This document shows positions 2,076 to 27,000 of a stretch of 64,000 nucleotides of DNA, one piece after another. The notes under the pieces were generated by a model that worked only from the letters and a program-made list of their open reading frames with translations, had not been told where the DNA came from and did no database searches. The stretch is from Macrostomum lignano. Taxonomy: Eukaryota. The first letter of the stretch is position 1. Every line of letters starts with the position of its first letter. The stretch is taken from the NCBI GenBank assembly GCA_002269645.1, contig NIVC01001982.1, positions 152,295-216,294 on the forward strand, in the 5' to 3' direction. The position numbers and the translations under genes were made by a program.

Positions 2076-2273
2076 GCAAAGTCTATGGCAAATTCTATGA
2101 AAATGTCTATGGCAAAGTCAGAAGAAAGTGGGGTCAAATGGCGCTGAGCCTCCTTGCGGGGGTGTTGGGGCGGAGCCCCCACATTAGCACACCAGTACTC
2201 TAGACAACGAAAGAAAGAATGAAGTCTAAAAAGTTGTCTATGGCCAAAACTCCTTTATTTTGCGAAGAAAATA

Positions 2274-2470
2274 TATAGCTTTTTGCATTCTAGTTTGGAC
2301 TGCGGGCTTTTAATTTGGACACAGAGTTGAGCAAAGCCCAGAGAATGCTGGCTAGTCTATGGCACAAATCAGAAGCAACTGACGGGCTTTTAAATTCGAC
2401 AGCGGGCAGTTTGGAAACTCTGTGTCCAAATTAAAAGCCCGCAGTCCAAACTAGAACGCAAAAAGCTATA
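2274..2470. mobile_element. MITE / foldback element with 55-bp terminal inverted repeats
   Basis: 2274-2328 is the reverse complement of 2416-2470 with one mismatch; ends TATAGCT...AGCTATA, compatible with a TA target. Confidence 0.8.
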
Positions 2471-3741
2471 GTAAGTGATACTAAGCATTATGAATCAGTA
2501 CTAAGCTTTACTTTCAAAATATAACAATTAGTAGAAACATTAACTAGATATAATACTTATATGCATACGAGTTTTTTTACTTATTGAAGTTGGCCATAGA
2601 TAATTGCAGCGGGCGGGATGCCTGCGTTTCACCCCGTTTGTGCAATGTGCATTCTTTTAACCCCCCCCCTTTGTGCTTTTAAGCATCAATTATTCATACG
2701 TTTGTTTTTACCAAAAATATAAATATCGACTTGTGAGCTTCAGAAACTCGAATTTTTTATTTCTCGCACTAACAACTATAGTGTTGTTTTAGCCAGCACC
2801 GGAGATACTGGCACCAGCGCCAGCAGTATAATACCTACAGTGCAAGTCCCTTTTGATAAAAACAGTGTGTAACCGGCTATTCAATACCGACAGGTCCAAG
2901 TGTGATTGCGAAGCAAATAACCGTGAATACGACACATTAACTTTAAGCACCAATAGCTAGATGTGGTTTGAAAAGTTTCAATTAGAAAGATTTTTGTTTA
3001 CCACCTGAAAGAGACTGTTTACTGTCTCTTTCGCGGTAGTCGGTAAGTATTCCTGTTAATTACCCATAAGAGGTTGTCCATGTTTCACCGTCCTCCCGCA
3101 GCTATATGCAGCAAACGATTACATAATCGGGTTAGATAGCGTGAAGCACACAGCAGAATGTCAGAGAATTTTCGCTTTATTGATAGATAACAAAATTCTC
3201 AAGTTAGAGCTCGGCTTGCAAGTTGACGTGTTAAGTTGAAAATTTGGTTGTTTGTTTTAATCCGCAGATTTTAACTGATTATTTTTAAAAAAAATGATTT
3301 CTAGGAAATTCTATCAGAAAGTCTTAACATTTCGATGCCAGGGTTAGTGATATAATTTGCAGTTTTGCTAGCAATAACTGCTGCTATCAGTTTATTTAGG
3401 TTTATAAAATATTCAATAAGATTGAACATAAGAGGAGAATTTCTTCAACAATAGTTAGTCTTGGTTTAATTTCAAACTGAAAAAAACTTTATAAATATTA
3501 GGGCAAATTATTAATTATATATATATTCATACGTGTACACTTTTAGGGCGAGGCGGTTAACTAGACATACGAGTAATTCGACTTGTGTAGATACGAGGTA
3601 TATTTGTCATACTTATAAGTAGTGTCTTTGGTTTTAGGCTCTGTTAGGTTTTTTATAGTTGCTTTTGGACTTCAAATTGTCTCAACATATCGAGTGTAAA
3701 TTTCTGCGATCATCAAAATTTGACTGACTTTGAAGTCGAAT

Positions 3742-4934
3742 TCAGCCGTTTGAGCACAGCAGGTCAAGCTGGTGAAACTCGTCCAGGCTGAGAGCTCCAA
3801 GGCTGAAACCGTAGCAGAACATTGTGCCGTTCAGGCAATTTGAGTCTGTCGATGACCGTCCCAGATTCAGTATCTCAAATCGATCTACCGAGTAGACGCT
3901 TGATTCGCGTTCAACCGAATCAGCTAAAATCAGGGAGCCGTTAAAGTAAAATTGGTGCACGGCGGTTCCATTGCAAGCGAATCCCGTTGACATCACTCGC
4001 TGGGCTACGTCAGATGGCAGGATTGGGTGCGACTTAGAGCGAATTTTTCTATTCCCATTTACGTCCGGTTCCACCTTAACAACGTCGTAGATTTTTCGCT
4101 CTTTCAAATAAAACGAATTTCCTAACTCGGAAATGTTGTTCGAAAACTTTTGATAGAACTGGACACTAAAATAGTGAAAAGATTCTGCAAGTCTTGGTCG
4201 TGGTCAGCCACTACATTTAACTCTTAAATGCAATATTCACGCCTCAGCTTACAGCGAATCGTAGAACAAGTGCCGAACTCGAACGAATGCAGAGTATTTT
4301 TCACCGAGCTTGAAGTATCTCCAGAATCCGGGAGTCGCTGTGCTCAGGAATGAGGCAGAATGACCATCAAAGTGAGCACCTACTGAGTCGACTTTCACAT
4401 TGCGAGACTTCAGACAGAACTGTCTCGGGTTGACTTCATTCCTGAGACCGCTCCTCGAGAACTTGTAGAACAGCTTCAGTTTGAGCTTGGTGAACTCGGG
4501 CTTGGGCAAGTCTGAAACAATATTTGAGTACTCGATCAGCTCATTTGAGACGGAATAAATGAAAATTTCAGTCCAAATACGTACGAGCTGCTGTGCAACT
4601 CACCGCAGTCTCTGCACAGCACATCCGTGTACTTGTACGAGTCGCAGTCGCCTTCGTCAGTCCATTGCTTGAGTTCTGAGCACGCGTCTCCATGGTAACA
4701 CTGGCCAGTGCCAATTTTGAAGTGGAATGCGTTGCAGGTGGGCAGTCGGGAGCAGGCGGCGGCGCACTGCAGCTTGCTGGTCAGCTTTTGCGGCAGCAGA
4801 GAGGCTTCTTCGGTGGGACAGCCATGGAACTTCTCGAACGACAGCTTAGAGGCGGAGGCACCGGCTGCTGAGCTCCAGCCTAGCAGTGAGAGTATCAGTG
4901 ACAGGGATAGGACCTTGCTAATCCTTCTCATCAT
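3742..4934 (-). CDS. Secreted PAN/Apple + LamG/pentraxin-like protein, copy 1 (exons 4934-4604, 4511-4253, 4165-3742)
   Basis: Signal-peptide-like N-terminus; PAN-type CAAACSRLPTCNAFHF...CYHG; GT-AG introns that keep frame; C-terminal FYFNG...LNLG...LNG...ALSLDEFHQL resembles a ConA-like/LamG fold. Confidence 0.75.
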
Positions 4935-5699
4935 GGTAGGTGTTGCAGTAATTGCACTACGCCTGCTGCTGATAGCTCACTGAATGGCAAGATGGCTCGA
5001 GTTTTTAAAAGCTCGAGACAAGTCTCCACACAAGCCACTGCATTATGGAACGGAAGTATTCAGTCGCCTAAATTGGATTCCATTACTTATGCCATTGAGA
5101 TGCCATTAGTCGCCATAATGGGATGAAATATTGGAATTTCTTCCATTTCCTATAGGCGCATCAGCTGTGTTTCCTGCTTGCAAACTCTGTTGGCGCTAAG
5201 CGTTTTTCGGTAAGCAAATGTGAGCGACTAACTGTCTTTGCATAGGCTCGGACGGTGCCAACGATCCCTGGTCTAAGAATTGTTTTAATGTGACAGCAAT
5301 ATTGCTGGCTTTTAGCCATTGCAATTAGGGTGGCTGGCAGTTTACATAGGAGCCTTAGTTGCAAGGTGTTTGCATTAGCTTGCTGAATATTTTTTTCGCG
5401 ATTTTTGTTAACAGCACTATCTGTCGGACCGGAGCCCGCACGCGAGTGAAACAATATCAATTAAACAGACAGGAGATTATAGACATTAAAAGGGTCTTAT
5501 AGGGATATGAAATATATATTTAGAATCAGATTATTTAACGGCATCGATGCCAACTCAATATTGAAGGAAATGTCAAATAGATACTTATAACATTTTTATG
5601 AGATTTGCTACATTTTGGGGAATGCAAAATACCATAGGCATCAAAGCTGTGTACCAGCTTAGAAGCGATCATTTTGCGAGAAACGACGCGGCTGCATAG

Positions 5700-6038
5700 A
5701 CAAGGGCTACTCAAGTAGAAGGACTGGAAACGACACTTCTTGGAAAATTTTAGAAGGCCGGAAAAATATATATTACGGAGAATGGAGGCTTTTATTAGTG
5801 TAACTGTGTAAGAAAATGTGTAACAGAATGATGAAATAGATTCATAAAACCAATGAGTCGAGCTGTGCCATTTTTATGGGATGAACATTGGATCAGCCTC
5901 CTATCAAAAGCAATAACCATTTTTGCGCTGAAAAATTGAAAGCCTTCATTCTCGGTAATGTATTTTAAGGCAAAACATGCCTCTTAAAAACTTTCCAAGA
6001 GACGAAGTTTCCTGTCCTTCTACTTGAGTGGCCCTTGT
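5700..6038. mobile_element. MITE with long imperfect TIRs
   Basis: ACAAGGGCTACTCAAGTAGAAGGACTGGAAAC (5700-5731) vs GTTTCCTGTCCTTCTACTTGAGTGGCCCTTGT (6007-6038); weaker inverted match continues inward. Confidence 0.7.
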
Positions 6039-6258
6039 TCATAAACTGGAGTGGATTCGAGATATTTAGACGACGGCTTAGTTGGTTGTCTGAAATTACA
6101 TCTTTTTACAGCATCAGAACCTAAATTAACCTAACTGCTTCACTTTAATTTTCAGCTTAAAATTATTAAAGCGTTATAAGAATCTCTTTGTAATTGTTAT
6201 TGCCTAAATTAATTAAGTAAATTTTATTATCAACATTTGACTGACTTCGAAGTCGAGT

Positions 6259-7426
6259 TCAGTCATTCGAGCACAGCAGCTCGAGTTGGTGAAAGTCATC
6301 CAGGCTGAAAGCTCCAAGACTGAAACCGTAGCAGAACATTGTGCCGTTCAGGCAACTTTGAGTCTGTCGATGACCGTCCCAGATTCAGTATCTGAGATCG
6401 ATCTACCGAGTAGACATGGTTTGTGGCGCTTGTCACGACACAACAATATGAATCGACTGTAGCAAGGGAGCCGTTGAATTAGAAGTGCTGCACAGCGGTT
6501 TCATTGAAGGTGAATCCCGCAGAAATGACTAGCTGATTTCCATCAGATGACAGTATACGTGCCGATGTGCAGTGACTTTGAAGTTCGAATGAGATTTTGC
6601 CTACCTTAGCAAAGTCGCGTATACGGCTACGTGATGAAAAGGATGAATTGCCGTAAGAGCCACTCGCCGATTAAAACCAGTGATAATTCTGATTTCTGAA
6701 ATGGTACAATTTTTTCTGAATACAATTTCTAAAACCGAGTTTAATTGAAACAAGATTAACGCATGCAATATTCACGCCTCAGCTTACAGCGAATCGTTGA
6801 ACAAGTGCTGCACTCGAACGAAAGGAGAGTACTTTTCACCGAGCTTGAAGAATCTCCAGAATCCGGGAGTCGCTGTGCTCAGGAATGAGCCAGAATTACC
6901 ATCAAAGTGAGCACCTACTGAGTCGATTTTTACGTTGCGAGACTTTAGACAGAACTGTCTCGGGTTGACTTCATTCCTGAGACCGCTCCTCGAGAACTTG
7001 TAGAACAGCTTCAGTTTGAGCTTGGTGAACTCGGGCTTAGGCAAGTCTGAAACAATATTTAAGTACTGGATCAGCTCATTTGAGACGGAATAAATGAAAA
7101 TTTCAGTCCAAATACGTATGATCGAGCTGCTGTGCAACTCACCGCAGTCTCCGCACAGCACATCCATGTACTTGTACGAGTCGCAGTCGCCTTCGTCAGT
7201 CCATTGCTTGAGTTCTGAGCACGCGTCGCCATGGTAACACTGGCCGGTGCCAATTTTGAAGTGGAATGCGTTGCAGGTGGGCAGTCGGGAGCAGAGAGGC
7301 TTCTGCGGTGGGACAGCCATGGAACTTCTCGAACAATGGCACTACTGCAATAGCGGCTGCTGAACTCCAGCCTAGCAGCAAGAGAATCAGTGACAGTGCT
7401 GGGAATTCGCTAATCCATCTCATCAT
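6259..7426 (-). pseudogene. PAN + LamG-like gene, copy 2, disrupted
   Basis: 44-bp deletion in exon 1 relative to copy 1 (frameshift near 7294) and in-frame TAA early in exon 3 (CAC TGG TTT TAA where copy 3 has CAC CGG TTT CTA). Confidence 0.75.
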
Positions 7427-8330
7427 GATCGGTGTTGCTGTATTTGTAGCTGGTTTGACATTCAATTCAAGACTTTCGCCTCCTGCTGATAGCTCGAATT
7501 TTTAGAAGCTTTAGACAAGTCTTGTACTCGTAAAGAGTTTGCATTATCGAACGGAAGTATTCAGTCGGTAAAACGCGATTCAATATCTCATTTATCCTAT
7601 TTCTTTGACACATTAACTTAGTTTCCTGCTTGCAGACTCTCAAGCTTTGCAGACTATCAAGCTTTTCTCGGTCTCGAAAGCAAATGTTGATCGAGTAACC
7701 ATGTCATTGCATAGGCTCGGTGCCATTTCTATTTTCTATTTTCTATTTCTAGAATATTTCGCTATTTGTTTCAATAGCGCCTTCTACCGGTATATTGTGA
7801 AGGAAGCGTCTCTTCTGTAAGTTAGCTTTTAATAATCTGTCGGAGAGGGAGCTAGAACACGACTAAAATAATAAACAATTTAGTAATATTACAGACAGAG
7901 ATTATAGACCTCAAAAGGATCTCATTAGGATTTGAAATGTATATTTAGAATCCGGCTGTAACAGCCTGGATGCCAACTAATTATTAAAAGGGAATATCAA
8001 ATAAGTTATTATATGTTTTAAGAATACATTCAATTGAGTTCGAAGTTTTATAGGGATCAAAGCTGTTTCCCTAAAACGCGATTGTTATTGTTTCTTCTGA
8101 AATTATTCCTTCAATTGAAGAGTTGAGTCAGGATACGCTTGTCATTCGACGACTGATTGATCGCGATCGGTTGTTTGAAACGTATTTTTATAGCGTCAGC
8201 GCATAAAGCATTCTTTCCAAAACTTATTAGAGTACTGATATTAAAATCTCTTTAGAGTTCTTACTCCCTATATTAATTGAGTAAATATCTCTTCTACTAT
8301 AACAACCGTTGACTGACTTTGAGGTTGAAT

Positions 8331-9503
8331 TCAGTCATTTGAGCACAGCAGCTCGAGCTGGTGAAACTCGTCGAGGCTGAGAGCTCCAAGGCTGAAACCG
8401 TAGCAGAACATTGTGCCGTTCAGGCACTTTGAGTCTTTCGATGACAGCCCCAGATTCAGTCTCTCGAATCGATCGACAGAGAAGGCACTACTCTTACGTT
8501 CAGATGAATCGACTGTAGCGATGGAGCCGTTGAAGTAGAAGTGCTGCACGGCGGTTTCACTGAAGGTGAATCCGGCAGACATGACTAGCTGATCTCCGTC
8601 AGATGGCGGGATGAATGCCGATGTGCAGTGGCGTTGAAGCTCAGATGAGACTTCGTTCACCCTACCAAAGTCGCAAATCCGCCTACCTGATGAAAAAAAC
8701 GAATTGCCGAAATCGCCACTCGCCGATAGAAACCGGTGATAATTCTGATTTCTGAAATTGTACCATTTTTTCAAATTAAATGTCAAGAAAACGAGTTTAC
8801 TTAAAACAACCCTTCAAAATTCAGGTCGCAGCTTACAGCGAATCGTTGAACAAGTGCTGCACTCGAACGAAAGCAGAGTACTTTTCACCGAGCTTGAAGA
8901 ATCTCCAGAATCCGGGAGTCTCAGTTCTCAGGAATGAGTCAGAATGACCACCAAAGTGAGCACCCACTAAGTCGATTGTCACGTTGCGAGACTTCAGACA
9001 GAACTGTCTCGGGTTGACTTCATTCCTGAGACCGCTCCTCGAGAACTTGTAGAACAGCTTCAGTTTGAGCTTAGAGTACTCGGGCTTGGGCATGTCTAAA
9101 ACAAATAATTAAGTACTCGATCAGCTCATTTGAGACGGAATAAACTAAAATTTCAGTCCAACTCACCCCAGTCTCCGCACAGCACATCCATGTACTTGTA
9201 CGAGTCGCAGTCGTCTTCGTCAGTCCATTGCTTGAGTTCTGAGCACGCGTCTCCATGGTAACACTGGCCGGTCCTAATTTCAAACTGGAAAGCATTGCAG
9301 GTGGGCAGACGGGAGCAGGCGGCGGCGCACTGCAGCTTGCTGGTCAGCTTCTGCGGCAGCAGAGAGGCTTCTTCGGTGGGACAGCCATTGAACTTCTCGA
9401 ACGACAGAACTACAGTAGCGGCTGCGGCTGCTGCTAGGCACAAGCAGAGCAGCAAGCTGAGAAGCAGCAGAGCTGATACTTGTAGTTTATCAATCCTCTT
9501 CAT
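8331..9503 (-). CDS. Secreted PAN/Apple + LamG/pentraxin-like protein, copy 3 (exons 9503-9167, 9095-8837, 8751-8331)
   Basis: Same exon structure and phases as copy 1, GTGAGT/GTAAG donors, open frame throughout. Confidence 0.75.
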
Positions 9504-10310
9504 CGCACAACTACAATGGCTAGCAGTTTTTTGAATTGATCCTCGCGGAGAATGCGATGTCGCGCAAAACGTTTTGAGTTTCCGATATACTGACTGTTTA
9601 AATGTAGAAGAAAAAAGAAAAATTTGTTTGTTAATCGCTCGGCAAATATCAACTTGGCAAACACAAAACCTTTTAGTGTCAATCTGTTTTTTTGAAAACC
9701 GGTTTAGAAGACGCGACGGAATCGTATAGACTGGATTTCCAAGAAGAAAGCTTTCTCTTGCCTCATTCGTTTGTCAATTTCTTTTTATCTTCCGCCGCAG
9801 AAGCACGCCACGTATATTTTCTGTACGCTTGCTATAGATATTTGAATAAGGCTTCAGCAATACTCATCTTCTGATTTCAGACTAATAGTCAGCAGATCTT
9901 GCCAGGCACAGTGGGTCGCTAGGAGGACGGTGTGAGCCTCAGAGCAGACTCAAGAGGTCTGGGTTTAGGATGACAACTGAGTCAGCAAAATTGGAGAACT
10001 AGGGCAATTGCAGAACTGGAGAGAGAACAGAGCTAAAGAATCCTTGATTGGAAAACAAGGCTTGAGAGGGCTCGCATTTATAGGCAGGAAATATTGCACC
10101 ATTACGCGCGAGACCCCGATTTTTCCTAATTTTTACACGGTCACCAATCTTGATTATACAGTATCTCTATTTTGAACCTTAATGTAAGAAAAATGAACAG
10201 TGAGCTCTTAAGGATGCGCGAGGGTTAAAGCGAATGCGTGCAGTTATTATAGATATAAACAAGGCAGCATAAATAAGGACAAGGTAGGGGCCTAAGCCTA
10301 TTCTAATAAA

Positions 10311-10932
10311 CTAATAAATAAAGCGACTCCCCTGTTTGCACGAACCGGCGGCGTCTGCGTCGGCGGCGCCTGTGGGAGGATTGGGGGACGGGGGCGTTAG
10401 CGGCAACTGTTCCATCGGCGGCGTCTGCGGCACCGGCTTCTGCACTGGCGGCGCTTGCGGGAGGATTGGGGGGGGCGGTGATGTTGGCGGCAACTGTTGC
10501 ATCGGTGGCGGTGGTGGGGGCTGCTGTAACTCTGCCAGCTGTCGTTCCAGCACCGCAACTCGTGGATCCTCCGCCGGTGCCGGCAGTGGGTCTGCCAGTG
10601 CTGGCGGCGGGTGCTGGATTCCGTCATTTAAAAGGACACGCCAGATCTGCTCCATATGCCTTTGGGGATTTCCGACCAGGCCATGCACAAAGAGTGCAGT
10701 TCGTAGGCCTGGTCTGAAATACAGCGCCGAGTTTTGCCCCCTAAAAACTCTGACACCGTTCGAAATTCCGCTGCTGTGCGAGCTCGCTCTGCGCAAGCAT
10801 GGGCACAGCGCTGTTCTTAAGGAGCTGCCGGGTTGTCCTCGAGGTGATTGCTTCCGGGCAAACTTCCATCGGTTCCGCAGCATCGGCGTTGCCCTCTACT
10901 ACTAGATCCTCCAGAAGCTGAGCGAAAGACAT
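10311..10932 (-). CDS. Unassigned ORF (~205 aa) with proline-rich C-terminus; one frameshift in a T run near 10743
   Basis: ORF 10932-10741 (MSFAQLLEDLV...CQSF) joins ORF 10883-10311 (FRGQNSALYF...PPPPPP) if one T of TTTTT is removed. Confidence 0.45.
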
Positions 10933-11835
10933 AGTTGCCGCAGATGAGTTTGATGAGACGAGACGACGTTAAAAATCTGAGAATTGCGACGGGGAGGCAG
11001 ATTCTTGAAAGCCCAACTCACACACACTTAAGGAATACGAATACGCGATGTGGCCATAGACACTCCACTAAATTGCGGTTGCAGCCCAGCATTCAAGTCG
11101 TAAGCACTGCTGTCAAAGTCGCGTAATTTTAGCCAGCCTTGGAGGATAAATGAGGCTCCAGAATTGGAGCCTCGAGCTCCAATACTAGATAGATGTGCAG
11201 TATTCGACGTGCAGTTTAGTGCTAGACAGCTCAGTGGCTGTCGTAGTTGTCGTCGCCTATTTGCGGCGGCATTGACGACATCTCCAATCGAATTCAGTCC
11301 ATTCTCGGCAGGTTTCTTATCATCGCCTCTAAGCCTATTTCGTCTTCTTGTGGTGCAATTGTAGCATATAACGGACTACTGCTGATTACGAACACTCAGT
11401 ACATCCCTGTGCGTCAATCAGCACTGCGCCTTAGTGCAGCCTTGCCAAGTCTCCAAATTTCATCAGCACGTCGACCTCATGTGTCTGCATCAGCTCTGAC
11501 ATTGTTAGTCACTGGCCTTCTCCCAGACGGAGCTTCTGGGCCTTCAACAGGTGGCACCAAGTGACTATGGACACGTTGTTGCAAATTTCTCCTGTTTCGA
11601 TGATCAAGCCCCGACAGTGGGCAAACTTCAACTGCTAGGTATCTTCAGCTAGCTAAATAATGGGTAGTATGCCGAGACAGGCAGAATGATGAAGCTCCCT
11701 TGAGCAGGAACGCTACTCCATGGGATATAGCGAATAGCTGATACCCTGCTACCCAACGACATAATGCAGCCACTACAAGTGACTTGTCTAGTAAAGATCC
11801 GGCTACTCTTCTGTTGCCAATGACTTTTATTGACT

Positions 11836-12130
11836 CTTAGTGACTCTTAGTGCCTCTCAGTGACTCTTAGTGAATCTTAGGACTTTTGCTGACATTTAGT
11901 GACTTTTAGTGACTTTTAGTGACTTTTAGTGACTTTTAGTGACTTTTAGTGACTTTTAGTGTCTTTTAGTGACTTTTAGTGACTTTTAGTGACTTTTAGT
12001 GACTTTTAGTGACTTTTAGTGTCTTTTAGTGACTTTTAGTGTCTTTTAGTGACTTTTAGTGACTTTTAGTGACTTTTAGTGACTTTTACTGAATGTGTGT
12101 GACTTTTAATGAGCCTTAGTGACTCTCAGT
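11836..12130. repeat. Tandem repeat, 10-bp unit GACTTTTAGT
   Basis: Direct inspection; more than 20 copies. Confidence 0.95.
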
Positions 12131-12248
12131 GATTTTTTTAGTGTCTTTTGTTTCTAAAAAGCCAAGACCCTGGGAATCTACCATAGTCGCCGATTGGCTT
12201 GTGAATTGGGGTTTGGTTTTCGCTGCTCTGTATTGGCTGATAGCTAGG

Positions 12249-13272
12249 TCACTCGTATTCTGTCTGGGGTCGTCCCCCGTTTATATTTGGCTCGCTGATA
12301 CCGACATAGCAAGTGTGGGGATAGCCCAATAACTGATTAAAAACGCCCAATAAGATTCTGTTCATTCGATCTGGAGAGTGTTTTTCTAAGTGTTGCCAGT
12401 CTGTTGGGTTTTGTTTCTTATATTCAGCTACTTTCAAAGGGTCTAACTGCTCGAGTTGACTGAGTACTTGTTCTTCTGTGGAATTTTGCTGCTGTAGTTG
12501 TGGTTGTTGTTGTTGTTGTTTTTGTTGTTGTTGTTCTAGATATTTTATGACTTCCGCCTGATCTGGCAAATCGAACCATTGTTTAAAGTGTTTGTACTTT
12601 TTAATCTAGTCAGGTTGACACCGTTATCATACATAAGTCTCAGGACTTCTGGGGCCTTTAGTATTTCTATATCTCTAGCAAGAGCAAAAGTCACTAGATC
12701 TCTATAGTTCTTTAGCTGTTTGTCCGAGATTCTCTCTTGGTTCTTGGTCATAAAATTCAGTAAGGTTTCTGTGAAAGGAATGCTCTTAGTTTCCGAGCCT
12801 TTGACAACAGAAATATGTTTCTTATTTATGTCGATATAATATTCCACTGGTTCATTGTAAATATTTTTTCTCCACAAATACTTATTCCAAATACATATTT
12901 CCCATCATGTTCTACACGCTCTACTGGTCCAAAAATGTTATCTGTCACTTTTAGTTGTGGTTGTGGTTGTGATTGTTGTTGTTGTGATTGTTGTGGTTGC
13001 GGTTGTGTCTGTGGTTGCGGCTGTATCTGTGGTGCTTCTGGAATTTTGCCCAATGCCTTTTGCACCTGGGTTTCCTGTATGTCGTCGATAGTTTCTTTGA
13101 CCTGATCAATATTTTTCTTAGCTTCTCCATACCCGGGCTTATGAAACTCTGTGGCTGCTTGGACAAACTCATTGTAGGATTGTTGCTCCTTTTTTATTGA
13201 CCCGGTAACTCGTTTCTCTGCTTGTGCTAGCTTCTCCAATTCAGATATCTGCTGTGTACTTTTTCGCTTCAT
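12249..13272 (-). CDS. Virus-associated unassigned ORF (~340 aa, Gln-rich tracts), two frameshifts (~12860, ~12570)
   Basis: Three overlapping ORFs (13272-12826, 12877-12545, 12569-12249) chain into one; DNIFG...DGKYVFG...TETLLNFMTKN...LKNYRDLV loosely recalls a conserved Maverick accessory ORF. Confidence 0.55.
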
Positions 13273-13302
13273 TTCTTATTTTATTTTATTTTTAGTTAAA
13301 AA

Positions 13303-14463
13303 ATGAACGACCCACTGACACCAGTTTTCTACAAAATTAACAAGCCTATTTTAAGTGATGATGGCACAATCAAAGCGACTCAGGTAAGAGTTCCCAGTCA
13401 GGAAAATCAGAATGAAACTAATCTTGATCCTGGTCAAACACTGACATTTACATACAATGGATGTTCGTCTTTGGTTAGTGTGCACACTGCACAGTCTTAA
13501 GAGCGGCTTCCATATGACATTTGAATTCAAGACAAAGGGTGGTGCGGATGCGGCTCGTGCTAACGTTGACAAGCATGATGCGGATGTGGCTCTGATTAGT
13601 AAATTTTGGGCGTACATGTTCGAGGAGTTTAGTGTATCGAATGGGAGCACTGAGTTGGAGCGAATCGCCAACTTTGGAATTGTCTATGACGCTCATTGTT
13701 TGATCGAGAATCCTGATTTTATTCAGTTGGGAAGTGGTGCGGGTTTTATTGCAGATGAAAAAGAAGGAGACATCAATGACAGTGGCTATAAAAATAGGAA
13801 GAAGAGATACAACTATGCATTGCAAGGTGCTGATGATGCTGCTAAGAACCCGCTGTATCGGTCTGTTGATGTATTTGTACCATTGAGATTCATGAGTGGA
13901 TTCTGTAATACATTTAATCGACTGACTAGTAACTTTAGCTACACATTTATACTGACTAGAGATGATCGCCTACATGTGTCGAGATGAGCGAAACGAAACT
14001 AGAACAAACATCTGCATCAAAGAGGGATCATGCAGCAATCCAAGGTATATTATTATTAACATGAGAAACCCAAATAGCATTATACGCTACATGCATGGAG
14101 ACGTGCGGTCCATTCAGCATGAAATCAGTGATAATCTTTACCCTGCACTGCCACAAAATGGAGATTTCAGTCAGAACAAGATTGCAGATGTTTCTCAAAA
14201 TTAGCAAATTTTACAGCGAGTTGGTCGACTTGGCTGTGAAAGAGAACAATGCAATTGCTATCACTGCTCTTCAATATGGAACTCTATATCCGATGTTTGG
14301 CGCTGATGTGTCTGCCAGACAAATGCCTACTGATAACAGCCCTGTGAATATCGTGACTAACATTGAGAGGATTGTCGCAACACCCGTGGACCTGTACATT
14401 ATCTATGCATTTGAGAGGAAGGTGAAGCTTAACATGATCAACAATTCATCCAGTAAAGTTTAA
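13303..14463 (+). CDS. Maverick/adintovirus-type major capsid protein (double jelly-roll), frameshifted, probable internal deletion
   Basis: Segments KPILSDDGTI...LDPGQTLTFTYNG / LERIANFG...FVPLRFMSGFCNTFNRL...FILTRDD / NPRYIIINM...YPALP...DFSQNKIA / YGTLYPMFGADVS...LYIIYAFERKV occur in the order I recall for Polinton MCP; frame changes near 13455, 13980, 14195. Confidence 0.75.
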
Positions 14464-14487
14464 ATATTTTTTTTGTGGGTGAAAAAA

Positions 14488-15379
14488 ATGGAAGCGATTG
14501 CTGAAAGACTAAATAATATTATTTCGCACTCCAAGGAGAGCATTCCTATTACAATAACTGGGCGAATTAATGACTCAAACGGGATATTTGTTCAAAAATT
14601 AGAGCAGGCGATTAGCCTGGATCCAGGTGCTAATTACCATGTCTATCTTAACGACTTCACTGGTTGGTCAAACGTTCCCAATGTGACGGCAGCAAATTTA
14701 TTATAAATTTATAATAATTTATTGTAATCAGTTTTATTACAAATGGAAAGGTGCAGCAGCAGAACCTGTAGTATTCCCTGTGAGCACGCAAACTGTGGAT
14801 ACTTACAATTACTTTCTAGAAAACGTCTTTACTAAAAGAGGCCATTTTGAGACACCTGATCTGATTAAGCCAGAGAAAAAACTGTTCCCTGTCAAACTAG
14901 CCTATGATCTCACTGTAATGAGAGTGGTCATGCAAGTTCACAAAGATGCGGAGGTTGAGTTTAAAGATGACACTTGGTATAGGGAATTGGGATTCGAGAA
15001 GAAAGTTTATAAGGCAGAATCCACGGCGCGGACCGCCACTCAAACGTCGGGGGCCGTTAGCATGGCCCGGGAAAATGTAAGCGGTTTGTTCTTAGCACCC
15101 AATATTGCAGACATTGTAAAGGGTTTGAATATTCTAATCAGAAGCAATCTTAGTCTTGATTGGGTATTTAAGGGAAAGCGAACGAATATTTTGTACAACA
15201 TCTCCAACTCTGTTGCTGGAGGACAGATGGTGGTAGAGAAACCAAATCCAGTGAAAAGAGTTGTATTGAGTAATAAGGAGATTCACGAGATTGTGCTACA
15301 GTTTGAGACTGAAGATGGGGTGGGTGTTGATTTCAACGGTGAAGAGTTTGTATTGACGTTAATCATTGAGAGAATGTAA
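14488..15379 (+). CDS. Maverick/adintovirus-type minor capsid (penton) protein, interrupted by a 28-bp insertion
   Basis: AISLDPGANYHVYLNDFTGWSNVPNV at N-terminus and GQMVVEKPNPVKRVVL...IHEIVLQFETEDG..VDFNGEEFVLTL at C-terminus resemble Polinton penton; directly downstream of the MCP. Confidence 0.7.
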
Positions 15380-15383
15380 GAAA

Positions 15384-15623
15384 TCACAATTGCCTAATGA
15401 TTTCTGCAAAGTTATAGTAGCTGTCGTAATCTTTTACGTAGGTTACTCCATACTTATGAAACCAGTGTCTTTGGAGAGCTAGATTAATATTAGGGACATT
15501 GATATCAACGCCGGGCCAATATTTTCTCATGTACTCGCTGCATTCTAGTTTGCATCGGTACTTACTCTTGTAATTAGGCTCGTGCGCTTTGTAATAAGAA
15601 CCTGGGGAGACAACTGGAAGCAT
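15384..15623 (-). CDS. Small Tyr/Lys-rich unassigned ORF (79 aa)
   Basis: AAAAATG start at 15623; stop 4 bp from the penton stop (tail-to-tail). Confidence 0.45.
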   Translation of the reverse strand: MLPVVSPGSYYKAHEPNYKSKYRCKLECSEYMRKYWPGVDINVPNINLALQRHWFHKYGVTYVKDYDSYYNFAEIIRQL

Positions 15624-15789
15624 TTTTATTGAGAATTTAATTTTTTTCAAAGGGTAAGGACCCTGCGCTGATGATTTAAAGTTTTAGGGATGTGGTAGCA
15701 CGTTGCGGATTGAATGTGGGGAGAAGAATGCAGATTATTTTCTGATTGTTTCGAAGATGCTATGGGTGGATGTCAGTGGATTATGTAGG

Positions 15790-16290
15790 ACACCTGTTAT
15801 GCTCTGATTCTGTCGTGGAGGAAGGAGGATAGGTTAGGATTATGGATGACGTTTTGTGAGCGAGTGCGACACCTGTTATGCTTTGATTCAGGGATAATAT
15901 GGATGGATTTAGGAGGATTATGTTCGAAGTTTTTGGAGCAAGTAGGACACCCGTTATGCTCTGATTCTGTCAGGGACAATATGGATGGATTTAATGGGAT
16001 TATGGAGGACGTTTTGTGAGCCAGTGCGACCCCCTTTTTTTGTGATTCTGTCGGGGATAATATGGATGGATTTAATGGGATTATGTTCGAAGTTTTTGGA
16101 GCAAGTGCGACCTCCCTTTTTTTCTGATTCTGTTGGGGATAATATGGATGGATTTAATGGGATTATGGAGGACGTGAAAAATTTTGTCCCAGAAGCCCCC
16201 TCATGCATTCTACTCATTGGTGTTTTGACCCCCATGTTTTAACATTGGTGTTTTGACCTCCTCATGTTTTAACATTGGTGTTTTGGCCCC
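15790..16290. repeat. Complex tandem array: ~82-bp units alternating two variants, then three 28-30-bp units
   Basis: ATATGGATGGATTT at 15897, 15979, 16060, 16142; CATTGGTGTTTTG at 16215, 16243, 16273. Confidence 0.85.
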
Positions 16291-16469
16291 TAAGTGGAAG
16301 AACTCTCATCATCGGAATTCTGAAGGGGAAGAATTCCCATCAGCTAAAATTCCATCACTTGAATCCCATCTTCCAAATCGTGTCCAAATCATGTACAACG
16401 CCTTTCAACTAACCATATATCTTGTTTTCACTGTTTCCAAAAACTCGCTGGCATTGTCCAGACTCGGAC

Positions 16470-17150
16470 TCTCATGTCTCTGCTCTCATTTCTCATATCT
16501 CATATCTCATATCTCACCCTCTCCTTTCTTATCTCCCATCTTCTTCTCTTTTCTACCATCTCCTGTCTCATCTATTCTCTCTTTTCTCTCCTCTCCATTC
16601 TCTCTTCTCTCATCTCCTTTCTTTTCTCATATTCTACTCTCTCTTCTCTAATCTTGAATCTCTTCTCTCTCTTATTTTCTCACACTTATCTCTTTTCTCA
16701 TTGCATCTCTCATCTCTCCTCTATGCACTCTCAGTCTCATCTTTACCCTCTTCTTTCTCATCACTACTTTCTTCTCTTACCATCTATCATCTCTGATCTT
16801 TCATCTCTCTTCTCTCTCCCATCTCCTATCGCTTCTCTCTCCTATCTCTCACTTCATATCTACTACCTTATTTCTCTCTTCTCCCTCCTACGTCTTTCGT
16901 ATTTACTCTTTCCTCTGTCCGCTCCTCTCGCATCTCTCATCTCTAATCTCTATTCCTTTTCTCTCTCTTCCACTCTCCCTTTGCTTCTATTCCTCTGTAC
17001 GCTCTTATCCCTTTCCTCTCTATCACATCTCATCTCTTTTGTCTCCTCTCTGCTATCTAATATCTCAATTAGAGTGAAAGGAGAAGAAAGGAGAGATGAT
17101 AGAAAAGAGGGAATGAAGTGGGAGCGAGAAGAGAAGAGGAGAGAGGAGAT
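16470..17150. repeat. CT-rich low-complexity tract
   Basis: About 600 bp dominated by C/T, ending in a short GA-rich tail. Confidence 0.9.
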
Positions 17151-17162
17151 CTGAGCCGATGG

Positions 17163-17532
17163 CACAGCCGATGGCAGAAGTGTGTGCAGCACAGTGGTGA
17201 CTATGTGGAGAAGCCTCAGGACAATGTTGATGATTAACTTTTGACTGTTCTTTCCTCAGCTTTCATGTTGCGGACGTTTTGTTGATTCGTTGAATGTTTC
17301 TTTTCGTGCATCAGGTACAAATCTTTGGTCTATGGCAATTTGTAGAATTAGTAGCACAGGGGGTGGGGCAGAAAAGTGCTCATATCTCAAGAATGCCAGC
17401 AGATACAGAAATAAACAGAAATTCATTTTAACGGGCAGATAATTCTCTTTCAACTGAAACAGACTTAATATTTCTGATCGGTCAGAAAAGGCTGTAGTAA
17501 AGAAAGTGCACCAACTTTTGGGACACCCCTCG
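17163..17532 (+). mobile_element. 3' end of a mariner transposon
   Basis: Encodes RWQKCVQHSGDYVEK (mariner transposase C-terminus) and ends AACTTTTGGGACACCCCTCG|TA. Confidence 0.7.
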
Positions 17533-18081
17533 TATCTGCGTATCTAATTTAAAAGTAAACAGGTTTATATTTGCTTTATGTCTGCTGGATTTGTATTATA
17601 GTATTCGTATTGTATTTATCCTTTATACTATACATTTTACTGTATGTATTTATGTTATTTTGCATAATAGTTTTTAATGTAGCTTGTTTTAATGACCAAT
17701 GTTAATTTATGTATAATAAATTGTCAATTAATCACTCGTGTCGTAAGACTTCGCCGCTCTGATTTGGCACTTTCGGATGAGAAATCAAATGAGGCTCCTC
17801 GGCATCAATTTTATTACTGGTGTAGCTTTTAAAAATAGCAACTTTAACAGAAAGTTAACAAAAAACAAAGCAATAAATGTTTCAGGAGTTATAAAAAAGT
17901 GACTTAAAGTCCTAAAAGCGTACACAATGTACTTTCTATTTTAACTTTTATCGATAACTCAAATAATCGCTTTATACCACTTCGTATTTAAACAATTGCA
18001 TTTGGTTTACTTCGTTGTAATTTTTTACTCAGTTCGCTGCTTATCGTTCAAACTAAAACAAGTCTTGTCTGCGTCGCGTCA

Positions 18082-20107
18082 ATGGCGTCGCAAGCAGCTA
18101 GGATCCAAGAAGAGACACAACAGAACCCAGACCAAGTAGAAGCCTGGATTCTGAGCTTTGCTGCCAATGCTCGGATAATGGAGGATATGAATTTCGAAGC
18201 TATAAAAGAACTGATAACTGCCACCATCCGTCCCAAGCGGCGCCTTGATTGACGGTCTGGCTACGGCAGAGCACAGGCGCAGGTTGCTCGAAAGGACTCA
18301 AGGTGCTGAAGTTCTGCTTCTCGACATTCTGCAAAGCTTAGAACAACTCGAGCAAATACAAGAATACATACAGTGTGGCCCCGACACAACCGCAGCAACT
18401 GGAGATAGCCTTCGCCAGACGTCAGTCCAAGTCCAATGCTTCATCAAAGTGCTCATACTGCGGGGGTAGTCACGCAAAAGGAAGCTGCCCTGCTTACGGA
18501 AAGAATTGTGCGAACTGCAACAGGCGCAATTACTTTGCCTCTGTCTGCCAATCAAAGACTGTCCATCAAGAGTCACTTGAACCCCAGGTCAGCGAACAGG
18601 AACCACAGAAGGCTTCAAGCGACGCCCACAGTGGAGCATCAAACAGATTCGTTGAATCCAAGGGCTGGTGACAGGGGCCTTTTCCAGTCAGTTCGCATCA
18701 ACGGTCGGCCGCTCCGGATGCAGCTTGACACAGGTGCAGAGATAAGTCTCATCCCCAGCAACCACTGGGAGCTGCTCGGCCGTCCCCCGCTCCGCAAGAC
18801 CAGACGAATTCTGCGCCAGTTCGATGGGTCCATCATAACATGTCTAGGTGAATTCACAGCCACATGGGAGACACAGTCGCAGTTTCGCACTTTAGACTTG
18901 GTTGTCACTGCCGCTCAAAAGTCCCACGGACTCTTGGGAATGGACAGTCTCAGCTTCGACCAGAACCCGTCCATCACGACACTATCAGCTTCGATCGCTG
19001 CTGTGGAGCAACATCCGCACCTACGAGGATTCGACGCCAAGATCAAGCTGGTGGAGGGAGCCAGGCCTTTCTATTGTGCTGCTCGATCCGTGCCAATTCA
19101 CCTTCAAGACAGCGTAAATGCTGAGCTAAGAGGGTGGAAGCCGAGGGGACCATCGAACCTGTTCCCCCCCCGGTGGGAGCGAGTGGGCTTCCCCCATTGT
19201 GTGCGTCATGAAACCTAACTGGCGAGTTCGAATCTGTGCCGATTTTAAAGCCGGCGTCAATCATCAAATCTGCGATGGCAGTTGAAACCATCCTCGCTGA
19301 CATCGCCGGTATGTCCTACATGTATTTCGCCACTCTTGATCTGTCCGACGCTTATTTGCAAATAAGATTGGAAGAGTGGAGCAGAACGGTTACTACGGTG
19401 GCCACGCCATTGGGCCTGTTCAGATACAACCGGCTTGTTCCTGGTCTCAAATCGGCCTCTGCTATTTTTCAAAAGGCCATGGAATCGACGCTGTCCGAGG
19501 TAAAAGGAAAGGTTGTCTACCAAGGTGACATCCTGCTCGGTGGACGCTCACGAGCAGAACTGGACGCCAAGGTCAATCGGAACGCTGACGTCCGCCGGGA
19601 TGACCGTCAACTTGGATAAGTCCAACCTGGGCGCCGCGGAGGTGAGCTTCCTGGGCTACAAGATCAGCGCTGCAGGCGTCTCTCCCGATTCAACGTTGGT
19701 TGAGAGAATCCAGGCAATCAGTGCGCCCAAGGACCGTCGCCAATTGGAGTCCTTCCTAGGCTTTTGAAACTTTTCGGGAGATTCGTGAAGAACTATTCCA
19801 GCATCTTTGAGCCGTTGAATCAGTTAAAAGGTAGAAGCACTGAATTTAACTGGGGTGCAGATCAGGATCGGGCGTTTCACCATCTGAAGGAACTCTTAGC
19901 CAGCAGACCCATTATCCGTCCTTAAGATCGAAAAAAGGAAACAACGCTGACCACGGATGCCAGTGAGCGTGCTATCGCTGCGGTTCTCACCCAAGATGGA
20001 CATCCTGTGATGTACTTCAGCAGGAGATTAAGTGAGGCTGAGTCTAGAGCGAGAGGCTCTTGCGGTTGTCTGGGCGATGGAACGAGCCCGCCAATTTCTG
20101 CTGGGAA
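18082..20107 (+). pseudogene. Gypsy A gag-protease-RT-RNase H
   Basis: Motifs as above, with several frameshifts and stops. Confidence 0.85.
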
Positions 20108-20109
20108 CC

Positions 20110-20995
<886 letters not shown>

Positions 20996-21168
20996 CCCCG
21001 CCCCCCAAAAAAAGAAACAAAACGATTGACAGATAAACGCGTAGTACCATAATCACCCGCCACCACAAAAGATAATGCTGTTGAACAAAAAACATGACGC
21101 TAGGCATGGCCCCAAAAATCGAATGATGAGACAATAAATTACAAAAAGGGTGATGCAAAGTCTGTCAC

Positions 21169-21820
21169 TCAAAGACTAACGCTGACAAGGGCCAAAAAAT
21201 GACGCAAACTCTGAACGGTCACTTCAGGCAGGGTCCACTCGCCTCCCCCGGTGGTGTCCGAGCACAAACTGTCGTCCGCAGCGGCGGCCCTGTCCCCGGG
21301 CCGGGTCCAGCGTGGGCGTCCGCACCGGCCTCGGGTCCGTCCTCGCTCCGCTCCGGAACCGACCACCGCCTCGTCCCAATCACCTCGGTTACCCCCCTTC
21401 CCTAACGACCCGTAACAGCACCACTTTCCGGGAACGCGAGCCACCACAACTGACAACCCTCAAGGGCACCTGCCTGCCACCCCGCCAGCACACCCCACGC
21501 TCACACCCTACTAGCACTCGCACGCCACCACTCGAGCACACCAGCGCAGCAGCCTCCTCACGTGACCCGGCTTGCAGCAGATCGTACTGCTCAACCACCG
21601 CGTTCACCATTCTCACCGCCTTTCTCAAACGCTCCACCTTCCAACCCCGTTGTCGACCGCGGCCCTTTGACCACGTTACCGACAGATCACGCCGCAATAA
21701 CTTCAGCACCTGAACTAGCGCGGCCGTGACGTATCTTCGGGGCTCTTCCCCTCGCGCTACGAACATCTCCCACGGATGCCTCACCGCCTGCCAAATCTCC
21801 GCCTCACTCCGCCACGGTTC
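21169..21820 (-). pseudogene. Extra ORF between pol and the 3' LTR of element B
   Basis: ORFs 21784-21389 and 21456-21169 join by removing one G from a G6 run near 21395; stops further upstream. Confidence 0.45.
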
Positions 21821-22169
21821 TAACTACGCCTTCGCCAGCCTCAGTCACGCCACTTCTACAGTCTGATCGAGCTCTCACCACGAGCACCGCCACCGTACGT
21901 TCACCGCCATCACTTCATCACCATTGCCTCAGACTCATCGACCCACTCTGTCTTCTACCATCTAACTTATTGTTGCGTAGCCACCAGTGCATCGCTTACG
22001 AATTCGACTAGTACTTTGACCTATCTCTGTTGACAATAACAAACGTTACAATAAAAAAAGTCTGCGGCCATTGCCCGCATCGGTCGCCTTTATTGCCAAG
22101 TGCTACCGCTACGAAATTGCCTCTGCCGTATTTGTCTTCGTGATTATTTTCGAGGCCGCCACTTTATCG

Positions 22170-23320
22170 TCACAGTGGCCTGCATGTGCCAGCTGGAGCA
22201 CCGTCCGACGTAAGCTGCTCGGGATCACGATCAACGAGCTCCGTAGTAGCACGCCGTCATGTTCTGAAAGCTCCTGCTGCAGGCAGGACAAGGACTGAAG
22301 TTCTCTGTTCTGCTTGTCCCATTGACCAGTTCGTAGAGCTGATAGAGCTGCTTGGATTGTGCCGTCTGACTTTGAAGCGTCCTGAATCGTTGCAAAGTTC
22401 AGTCCTTTCGGAGTAGAGCTGATGGCGACTGCGTTGATGAAGCGTCTGTCCAGGAGTTCCCCGGGGTTGTCCTTTGTCTGCATTTCAGGTTGTCTACTGA
22501 GGACATCCGCTGGATTCTGTGGCCCCGGCTGGTACATGGTAGATAAGCTTGAATTTGCGGTGGTGCTGCACTCTTAAAGCCACCCGTTCAATCCTTGGTG
22601 GAGGCCTGGAACCAGGTTGAAAAAGCGAGACTAATGGGCGGTGATCAGTGATGACTGTGAGATCTGGGCAGCCGCTGAGGTAGTGCTCGAAACGTAGGCA
22701 CCCGAATTTCACCGCAAGCGCCTCGCGTTCAATTTGGGCGTATCGCTGCTCAACTGGCGTGAGCGACCTGCTGGCGAAGGCGACCGGTTTGCGAACGCCT
22801 TTTCCGTCCACCTGGCTGAGAATGGCTCCCAGACCGACTGGCGAGGCGTCCACGTGAACTTCTGTTGGGAGATTCACGTCAAAGAAGGCCAGGACGCTCT
22901 CCTTGCAGATCGCTGCTCTTGTTTGCAGGAATGCTTCTTGTTGCCTTTCTGACCAGCACCATTTATGACCCTTTTTTAGCAGTTCTCGCATTGGCTGCGT
23001 CAGATCTGAGAAGTTCGGAACGAACCTGGACAGGTAGGAGGCCAAACCGAGGAATGAGCGCAGCTCTGACACATTTGTTGGCTCCTTAAAGTCTTCGAGG
23101 GCCTTGATCTTCTTGGCTGCAGGCTGGACGCCTCGTGCGCTGATGCACATACCAAGAAAATCGATGAAAGGCTGCGCCAGACGACACTTGTTCGGGTTCA
23201 AGTGTGATTCCATGGTCTTATAGGCGCTTGAAGCACTGTTTTAGTCGGATGTTGTGCTCTTCCATCGTGCTCGCAAAGACGGTGATGTCATCGTGTGCCC
23301 ATCGGACACCGTCAAGACCG
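22170..23320 (-). pseudogene. Gypsy B RT C-terminus, RNase H and start of the integrase zinc-binding domain
   Basis: WAHDD..., NPNKC...FIDFLG, VHVDASPVGLGAIL, QIEREALAV, TDHRPL, LAHAGH. Confidence 0.9.
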
Positions 23321-24722
23321 CGAGGCAATTACAGCGCCTATCCGAAACCAGCGAGGAGGACGCACGCATCGTGCACTGGACAGGCGGAGCTGTCCTTCCC
23401 TGGCGCGAACTGGCCGATGAAACCTTAAAAGAGCGCCTACTGGTTGAAATTGCGACCCGCATCGTGAAAAACTGCTGGTCCCAACTGCTCTCCGGCTGAA
23501 CGCCCATTCAAAGCTATTCGTCATGCTCTCGCTACCAACGAAGGCGTGATCTGTTATGGGGACCGGACAGTCATCCCAACCTCACTACGGAGGCGAGTAC
23601 TCGCGCTGGTGCACAACGACACTCATCAGGGCGCAAATTCAACCCGGTCCCAGTTTCGCAACTCGGCATGGTGGCCAGGCTACTGTGGTGACGTGGAGTC
23701 GTTTGCCCGTGCCTGTTCAACATGCGCCAGGCTGCATCCGAGAGGTCACAGCACCGTGCACCGCTGGCCACAATTGAGAACGGTCCATGGTGCCGCGTTC
23801 ATATGGATCACGCACACGTGCCAGGAGTCGGTCTCATCCTGATTCTCGTGGACGCCATGTCGGGCTGGCCAGAAGCCGTGCGAGTTCCAGATAGAATCGC
23901 AGCAACCGTTGAGCGCGTGCTCCAGGACGTTTTCTCTCGCAACGGAGTCCCAGACGTGCTGGTAAGCGGCAACGCGGCAGAATTCCATGATGCTGAACTG
24001 ACCGGCTGGCTCGAAAGAATCGGTTGCTGCCCTATCAAGACCCCGCCACTGCATCCTCAGTCGAACGGCATCGCGGAACGAATGGTTCAATCTATCAAGA
24101 AGGCCTCTCTAGGCTATGGGATCATCGGGAAACGTACAAGAGCTTCCTGGCCAGGCTTCTACTAAACTACCGCTGCATCCCGCATGCAAGACGTCCGCAC
24201 AGCCCATCGGAGCTGATGGGTCGGCAGCTGCGAAATCCCATTACCATGCGCACGCCGACCGGATCGGGCATCTGGTACGTCCCCGCCGCCGGACTGCCCC
24301 CTGAAAAGGCGGAGTTTCTTCTGCAGAAGGGCTCGAATACCGCCCTCATTCAACGAGGATCCGGGCGTCTCACATTGGCGCATCAGGATCATATCCAACC
24401 GTTGATCAATCCCGAAGCGAGTCAATCGAGCACAAAAGAGGCAGAGAACAACGCTGCTGCTCCGTTACCAAGACATGACGGGGACGCTGTTGCTGGCCTG
24501 ATCGGCGGCTCTGCTGAGCGGCACAGCGCGGACGGTGACGATGACGCGCACACTGAACAGGCAGCGGAGACGGCGCCGGATGTTGCGCTCGACCTGGCGT
24601 CGAACGCTGAACTCGACGCGACGCCGGAGCCACATCCGACTCACCCTGGTGGCATGTTAGGATGCTACCCCTCGCGCTCGAATAAGGGAGTGCCCCCTCT
24701 ACGATTCGGAGGGGGAAGATGA
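23320..24722 (+). pseudogene. Gypsy A integrase
   Basis: HNDTHQG...WWPG...CSTC zinc finger; PWCRVHMDHA, VDAMSGWPEA, PDVLVSGN, HPQSNGIAERMV core. Confidence 0.9.
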
Positions 24723-25007
24723 CGTGTTGGGAGGTTGTCACTGACTATTGACTGGCTAGCTATAAAACTGACTCACTTTGTGCCCTGCTCACCATGCCAA
24801 GCGTGCACCCCACCCATGCGTACATCAATGCGTACATAGCGTACTTTCTACTCTAAATTTTATTAATAACTCAAATATCGTTTTCTGCCACTTCGTATTT
24901 AAATAACGATATCCTTCTTTTCTTCGTAGTAAATTTATTACTCAGCAAATATATCAGTTCGCTGCATTATTGTTCAAACTAAAACAAGTCTTGTCTGCGT
25001 CGCTTCA
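24720..25007 (+). repeat. 3' LTR of Gypsy A (288 bp, TG...CA)
   Basis: Follows GGAGGGGGAAGA tract; 3' part matches 17917-18081. Confidence 0.8.
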
Positions 25008-25199
25008 CCCTTCACACCTAGATTTATCAATACCGGGACCAATAATTTATAGTACGTTGTAAATGTATCTATAATTATTACTGAAATATTATATTACACA
25101 GTATTATAGTAAACAATAAATTTAATAGAAATGTAAGTGTATTATTTTTATTTACAAGCTTGTGTATAAAAAAACTTTTGTTTGTTCCTTTATGTAGTT

Positions 25200-27000
25200 G
25201 CTCACGGCACATGCGTATCGATTGGCAGCAGCGGCATGTGTAGTGGGCTTCAGGGATGTGGGCCATCCTCAGTGGAGCTCCAGCTGCTGACTGCGGTTTC
25301 ATAACGATCGGCACAACTGCATCGGGCTGGTCACGGGCTCTTCCCTGATTGTTGGGTTCTCCAATAGGTAGTCGCGCTAGCCTGTCGCTGCAGTTGACGG
25401 GCATCTGCCTTACCGCCTTCGGCCGTCAGCAGCTTCTCAACGCTCTCAAAGAAGCAGTTGCCCAGGTGAGCAACGTCTCCCAAATTAGCAGTCTATAGGC
25501 TTGCAGAGAATGACTTAAGGACGGCGATGGCATCCACCTGCTTGTCTGCCAGCTTTTTTCGACGTATCCGCAGCTTGTCCTGGCGAACGACCTTCCGTGC
25601 TCGGGATGCCTGCAACTGATTCCTTCGTCGTTGGTTTCGGTTTCGAAAATAAAGTAGGTTGATTTGCTGGTTAGGTTTGAGTGTGGGATCTCCTGGACGA
25701 CTGGCTTCCGTCGTCAAATCAGTTTTGAAGCCTTGCGTCGGTGTCCGACTGCCAGCATGTCTCTGACCGCGGCACTGCAGGCGTCCCACACGGATGAGAA
25801 CGGTGAGAAGTGTTCTGTTGAATTACGAGTATTTAAAAGCGTGAGTATTGTGCATCTAACTCATATAAATCTTGAAAGCTATAAAACTTATGACAAAATA
25901 GCAGACTTAAAGGGAGAATAGAAGGCACGGGAAAAGATGAAGAGCAAATGATGAGACGAGAGATGAGAGGATAAGATCAGATCATGCAGAGGATGAGATG
26001 AGAGAGCAGTGGATGCAGAGGGTGAGATGAGAGACCAGAGGATGATAGGGTACGGTGGACATGTGAGTTGGGTGATATGCAAAGAGAGGGATGCAGAGAA
26101 GGTAAGAAGACATTGATCGGAATGCATATAATTGCTCAATTACTCATAATTAGCTATCTCGGCTTATAGGCCTACCTTTTGACTGGACTGAATCCGTCTC
26201 CATCCTCTCTCAGTCGGTCATGGGCTGAGTGTCACAGAGTCATCCATCATGCCCGGAGCTCTCGGACTGCTGGAAGTCGGATGAGTCGGGCTCACCTGTG
26301 GTGCGACAGAGGAGAGGGAGACACGTTCCTGTCAGCAATTCGAGCAGATCCTTCCACGGACGGTCGGAAGCTGTCACAGGACCTGTCTTGAGCTGCTGCA
26401 GCTTCTCAAAGCCCAGGACCCGCTTGAAGCAATGCTCGACGGAGCAGCTCATTGTTTGGCAGACCCGATTAGATCGCTCCTGCCCCTGTCGGTGGCTGTT
26501 AGTCTCAGCACAGCCAGAATCGTCGGCTGCTGTTCCGGCTGAAGCTGGCACAGGAGCTTCGGGGAAGTACGTCAGCTTGTCGAAGGCCAGCGCGTCCGGG
26601 TTTCAGGGATAGATGCCGGTCTTACTGAATCCTGACTGGATGTTCTCCGCCGTTGATCTCTACTGTGTGCGACATCACGGAAAGAGACGCACGAACTGCA
26701 GCCTGCTGACTGTCTCGCTGACAGCCGCATGACGTGGTCGCTCGGCCAGGAGATCACGCCAACCACCCTTCACTGATCGAAACACAGCCAAGTCTAGCGG
26801 CTGCATGACGTGGGTGGCATTGGGCACCAGGCCGTACAGCACGATCCGCTCTTCCCTCAGCAGCTCGAGAACTTCAATGGACAACCGGGACTCATGCAGG
26901 TCCGTGAAAAGAACAACCGACCGACGGATTTTCTCCTGTAGCAAAAAGGGAATGAAGGTTTTTCAATGAATTCTTGCAAAACGACTGCCATCATCCAGCC
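25200..27000 (-). mobile_element. Degenerate pogo/Fot1-type (DDE_1) transposase, 5'-truncated, with GA-rich insertion at ~25860-26180
   Basis: GWMMAVVLQEFIEK...VLFTDLHESR...LVPNATHVMQPLDLAVFRSVKGGW...NIQSGFSKTGIYP. Confidence 0.8.

Follow-up and report, generated by a model that had tools for sequence, protein, structure and literature searches.

A capsid-gene stretch of the Macrostomum lignano genome is very probably the decayed right end of one copy in a young and numerous Maverick/Polinton family

The locus lies in a 64-kb stretch of the Macrostomum lignano genome (764 Mb), C1982:152295-216294 on contig NIVC01001982.1. This whole analysed stretch is called the window, and coordinates given below without a contig name are window positions. 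Comparison with copies fetched from the rest of the genome (blastn, coverage) placed the right-hand remnant of a Maverick/Polinton at 12354-16214 on the plus strand, that is about 3.9 kb of an element of about 15-16 kb. ORF-A, a conserved gene of about 400 aa, occupies 12354-13272 on the minus strand and is spread over three frames, with breaks near 12876 and 12603 (tblastn against unbroken ORFs). It starts at 13272 and is cut at 12354, which leaves it about 106 of 400 codons short (about the last quarter), and it received no Pfam, NCBIfam or Atlas assignment. The major capsid gene, predicted to encode a double jelly roll (13303-14463, plus strand), is broken into four frames near 13480, 13968 and 14180, and tblastn against unbroken ORFs of other copies showed that about 150 bp are missing near 13968. 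A likely minor capsid (penton) gene follows at 14488-15379 on the plus strand, in two frames with a break near 14696. Finally, ORF-D (15384-15623, minus strand), a whole gene of 79 aa without a family match, sits in the inner portion of the terminal repeat; of nine copies tested, four have it at both element ends. A first-pass annotation had described this stretch as four tightly packed ORFs. Four packed genes are indeed there, but those of ORF-A, the major capsid and the penton are not open and ORF-D is the only intact one. The integrase, polymerase, protease, ATPase, PLA2-like and pX-like genes of the family were absent from the 64-kb window and from 10 kb to its left (tblastn), in agreement with the earlier remark that no PolB, integrase, ATPase or protease could be recognised.

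Pfam searches with the window's own fragments returned a weak capsid hint (E 0.1). In another copy, the unbroken 428-aa major capsid ORF matched PF21738 with E 2e-5, just under the cut-off, and the same family was matched by 10/10 alignment members of the major capsid. The major capsid of another copy was modelled with a 97-sequence alignment at a pLDDT of 92.5, against 31 when it was folded without alignment. Foldseek placed the capsids of Sputnik, PBCV-1, an iridovirus, mavirus and PRD1 at the top ranks for this model (best E 2.4e-18). The modelled fold of the major capsid gene family is thus a double jelly roll, and the Maverick/Polinton/adintovirus identity proposed at first pass held in this jelly-roll check, which returned the Sputnik capsid (E 2e-18). 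PDB sequence searches with the capsid and penton profiles gave nothing useful. The penton-like gene had neither a Pfam match nor a PDB sequence match. Its window fragment reached an Atlas feature score of 0.97 to viral clusters; one of these, at rank 17, is a Sputnik V18/19 minor-capsid cluster in which 59% of members carry PF21507. These features and the position adjoining the major capsid suggest that the gene is likely a minor capsid (penton) gene. The adjacent, co-oriented pair announced by the first-pass annotation is therefore retained, the major capsid by its fold and the penton as likely.

On its right side the remnant ends in a terminal inverted repeat (15386-16214, plus strand) that contains a tandem array of about 82-bp units at 15785-16175 and terminates with CTACT at 16214. 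The module had been delimited as 12249-15623, which missed this repeat and placed the left limit at a stop located in host flank common to the sister contig C2769; the limits have to be corrected to 12354-16214. The next six bases, CATTGG (16215-16220, plus strand), would be the 6-bp target duplication, and they have no partner because the left element end is gone. An empty site with a single CATTGG was not found among 40 scored of 1692 candidates, nor was a long inverted repeat pairing two ends found inside window 8000-19000. The left breakpoint falls inside ORF-A, at 12354-12355, where comparison of the junction letters revealed one common base and no longer microhomology. In blastn comparisons, 18 of the 19 fetched copies align leftwards with the remnant as far as roughly this point, or else to a break of their own. 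Both halves of the junction at 12354 occur together in the window alone (40 scored of 275 candidates), and the junction with the right flank is unique too (40 scored of 1692). The sequence to the left, 11821-12353, is made of a 10-bp satellite and low-copy sequence, is common to C2769 and lies outside the element. Further left, a frame at 9153-9773 (minus strand) has a weak PAN-domain match (E 6e-4, under the cut-off) and may encode a small host protein that is secreted. A different high-copy repeat, whose tail is CT-rich, begins immediately to the right of the element (16292-17067; 1692 candidates).

C2769 is collinear with the window over 1-12354 and again from 22175, mostly at 92-99% identity, and lacks window 12355-22174. 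C2769 carries 1.8 kb of different sequence instead, part of which is the remainder of a retroelement integrase that resumes at window position 22175. The comparison therefore indicates that a composite block of 9.8 kb (12355-22174), which consists of the Maverick remnant, other repeats and Gypsy-like pieces and cuts genes at both of its edges, replaced 1.8 kb. A donor locus for the block was not found (40 scored of 1692 candidates). The broken Gypsy-like pieces, with aspartyl protease and reverse transcriptase matches, extend over 17915-26460. Elsewhere in the window, a 33-bp satellite and adjacent sequence (43524-44996) are single, and C2769 has about three 2.4-kb units of them.

To describe the family, the genome was searched with 13290-15400, which gave 469 candidates, of which 40 were scored (89-97% identity); 19 copies were fetched with their flanks and 7 more were chosen by paired ends. 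Complete copies measure 14.7-16.8 kb, have the ends AGTAG...CTACT and carry terminal inverted repeats of 254-870 bp. Their 6-bp target duplications match in 12 of the 15 checked (7/8 and 5/7). An integrase (rve, E 2.2e-9), an adenovirus-type protease (Peptidase_C5, E 1.5e-4) and a packaging ATPase (Pox_A32, E 7.2e-7) all scored above the cut-off, and PLA2-like (E 2e-13) and pX-like (E 5e-7) ORFs were also recognised. Protease and ATPase are present in 18/19 fetched copies. Integrase, polymerase, protease, ATPase and both capsid genes are covered at 75% or more in 12/19, and three of the seven copies that fall short stop at a contig end. The family is young, with copies about 2-3% apart and terminal repeats often 97-99% alike.

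The polymerase assignment is more indirect. By eye, a large ORF of the family shows motifs that we take to be those of a B-family DNA polymerase. This ORF had no polymerase match in Pfam, NCBIfam, PHROGs or PDB and was never a single open frame in the 19 fetched stretches. In the C958 copy (L044:4846-7089, minus strand) it contains an endonuclease VII/HNH-like domain (E 4e-4 in Pfam, under the cut-off, and 3e-5 in PHROGs). It is from the motifs that the ORF is named a likely protein-primed B-family polymerase. An HNH insertion is described as specific to oomycete and nematode pPolB2 (10.1101/2023.08.22.554363). Some variation between copies was also seen: terminal repeat length differs (about 0.25-0.87 kb; L050, L031) and the repeat may include ORF-D; in C1076 it also takes in the end of the penton gene; and in C958 and C1684 the protease-ATPase stretch is duplicated internally or in the flank, by real duplication or assembly error.

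Copy numbers were estimated with exact words of 18-19 bases, those for the three genes being present in 18/18 copies compared. Genome-wide, 230 integrase, 250 polymerase and 229 major capsid matches were counted, the 19-mer at the element terminus was matched exactly 486 times, and control words gave 0 matches in every case. The integrase:polymerase:capsid:terminal repeat ratio is thus about 1:1:1:2. The Maverick family is present as a few hundred genome copies, and its capsid genes are not in excess over integrase or polymerase. Of the first 100 listed among the 486 ends, 46 stood alone and the others formed 27 facing pairs, a count that may have overlooked partners with a mismatch or at the end of a contig. 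One-ended remnants are therefore common in the family.

To evaluate decay, the capsid-penton sequence of the window copy was aligned with those of 16 fetched copies, the full 19 without C633, C180 and C3216. The four breaks in the window capsid and penton genes (near 13480, 13968, 14180 and 14696) are multi-base and private, occurring in 0/16 other copies; the single-base gaps of those other copies resemble sequencing error. Both frames are open at full length in 10/19 copies. On average the window copy is 2.9% from the others, which is inside their own range of 2.1-3.1%. When variants were scored against the commonest codon of each column, pN/pS was 0.15 for variants shared between copies versus 0.31 for private ones (Fisher P 0.015). 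The capsid genes of the family show purifying selection, which is in keeping with a lineage still dependent on its capsid. The private substitutions of the window copy, 10 replacement and 3 silent, agree with the site ratio of 3.73 expected under neutrality (P 0.74); because 13 is a small number, they leave neutrality unrejected rather than established.

Taken together, these results make it very probable that the window copy is simply a decayed remnant, truncated on the left, of an element from a young Maverick/Polinton family of adintovirus type with many copies. Most other copies examined keep the genes that are missing here, which argues for ordinary decay and against a capsid-only system. 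The first of the two options left by the first-pass annotation, a deleted remnant, is the one favoured by the single end, the unique left junction and the broken genes. Full-length copies elsewhere and a ragged end unique to this place, the combination that it had associated with a plain decayed Maverick, are both observed. Autonomous Mavericks have two ends and genes for replication and integration; the window copy has a single end and none of those genes. A whole element of about 15-16 kb would likely have been inserted at CATTGG by the integrase of the family. A later break-and-repair event most likely removed the left 12 kb or so, and the remaining right end, inside the 9.8-kb block, would then have become attached to the flank now seen there. 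The reading frames would afterwards have been broken by multi-base insertions and a deletion in the absence of selection. In all likelihood, the window copy makes no capsid and cannot move alone.

The left junction could instead be an assembly join, by which the remnant of a longer copy located elsewhere was stitched in here. The region is repeat-rich, the 9.8-kb block is entirely absent from C2769, each of the block edges interrupts a gene, and the error-like single-base gaps of other copies point in the same direction. Sequencing error, however, does not usually produce multi-base private breaks such as those of the window copy. The right junction of the remnant is likewise unique and the two contigs are collinear on either side, so we consider an assembly join very unlikely. 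Whether the left junction is real or an assembly join, the conclusion stands that there is no capsid-only system here.

Rearranged elements with two ends do exist elsewhere in the genome. Facing pairs less than 12 kb apart made up 7 of the 27 among the first 100 listed ends, and all seven were fetched. C544:473028-476600 is a 3.6-kb element with both ends, the duplication ACATAC and capsid and penton genes only; both frames are broken and its junction is single-copy (40 scored). C633:134497-147607, one of the 19 copies fetched first, is a 13.1-kb palindrome with 4.8-kb arms at 99.3% identity and the duplication CCACTG on each side. Its arms carry ORF-A, capsid and penton at both ends, with protease and ATPase in the centre, no integrase and almost no polymerase, and its junction is also single-copy (40 scored). 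A second, independent palindrome, C276:289398-300645, measures 11.2 kb, with arms at 99.6-99.9% identity and a matching duplication. Both palindromes have arms of 4.7-4.8 kb, doubled capsid genes, no integrase and little or no polymerase. Transposition of the C276 palindrome to three sites was considered and rejected, since C276, C3945 and C1652 have common flanks and a common duplication and are therefore sister copies of one insertion. In C1652 the central part of the palindrome has the opposite orientation with respect to the flanks, through a flip-flop between the arms or an assembly ambiguity. Elements of 0.64-0.87 kb made of terminal repeat only were found at C124:22982-23697, C289:58541-59180 and C32:1150965-1151833, the first two of which have the common duplication ACCAGC and are likely one insertion.

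All these derivatives can arise in place after insertion, and no evidence of movement was found for any of them, those tested being each at one insertion site. C633, C276 and C544 might alternatively be products of defective-interfering genomes spawned by the family, formed by extrachromosomal template switching and then integrated in trans by a helper with fresh 6-bp duplications; we regard this as rather unlikely. Even if it were true, the window copy would still be only a fragment.

The window copy gives no support to the second option of the first-pass annotation, a capsid cassette that is non-autonomous, satellite-like or retained by the host, because this copy has one end, a unique left junction, broken capsid genes and neutral-looking substitutions, and because capsid genes show no excess. 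A satellite-like capsid element mobilised by full-length helpers might be suggested by the two-ended derivatives without integrase or polymerase (C544, C633 and C276) and by the mobile polymerase-less polintons reported from butterflies in 10.1101/2025.02.07.637071. A mobile derivative would have both ends, a target duplication and one internal junction at several sites; the window copy has one end only, a single-copy left junction and broken capsid frames, capsid genes are not in genomic excess, and each derivative tested maps to one insertion site. Such an element is thus highly improbable at this locus. A capsid cassette domesticated by the host, for which the one argument is that capsid genes are present and replication genes are not, is scarcely credible here: domesticated genes would have open frames, purifying selection and fixation at the locus, whereas the capsid gene is spread over four frames with a loss of about 150 bp, the penton is in two, the private changes look neutral, C2769 does not have the locus and the mean distance to mobile copies is just 2.9%.

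The window locus itself is of little weight, one-ended remnants being common in the family. The family is of modest use, being young, present in a few hundred copies and endowed with capsid genes under purifying selection. Its two-ended derivatives offer material on Maverick replication and on whether defective genomes integrate in trans. A description of the family was not found in the literature listings searched, and it may already be catalogued, for example in Repbase.

The capsid of the family resembles those of the virophages Sputnik (3j26) and mavirus (6g44) and PBCV-1 Vp54 in its modelled double-jelly-roll fold (Foldseek E 2.4e-18 to 1e-16, TM 0.55-0.65). At 8-12% identity these capsids are relatives by fold alone, and no virophage life cycle is claimed. 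In 10.1101/2023.08.22.554363, Polintons are defined by a length of 13-25 kb, terminal inverted repeats of 100-1500 bp and a target-site duplication of 5-8 bp, and the complete copies fit all three ranges. They also resemble the Polintons/adintoviruses of Starrett et al. (PMC8502044) in having an integrase, an adenain-type protease, an A32 ATPase, a capsid, a likely penton and PLA2-like and pX-like genes. The same paper presents PLA2X of adintoviruses as one gene, whereas the PLA2-like and pX-like domains are here in two separate ORFs. The family further differs from Polintons in its polymerase-like ORF, which has no Pfam polymerase match and contains the endonuclease VII/HNH-like domain, and the window copy differs from them as a one-ended fragment. 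For butterflies, 10.1101/2025.02.07.637071 describes mobile polintons that lack a polymerase and forms with capsid genes inside the terminal repeats. C633 and C276 are similarly polymerase-poor, with the capsid gene in two terminal-repeat copies. The butterfly forms are argued there to be mobile from repeated insertions, in contrast to the derivatives tested here, each of which is at one site, and to the window copy, which is no such form. Polintons without polymerase and with capsid genes in their terminal repeats, as that source reports them, therefore provide a precedent for the derivatives of the M. lignano family.
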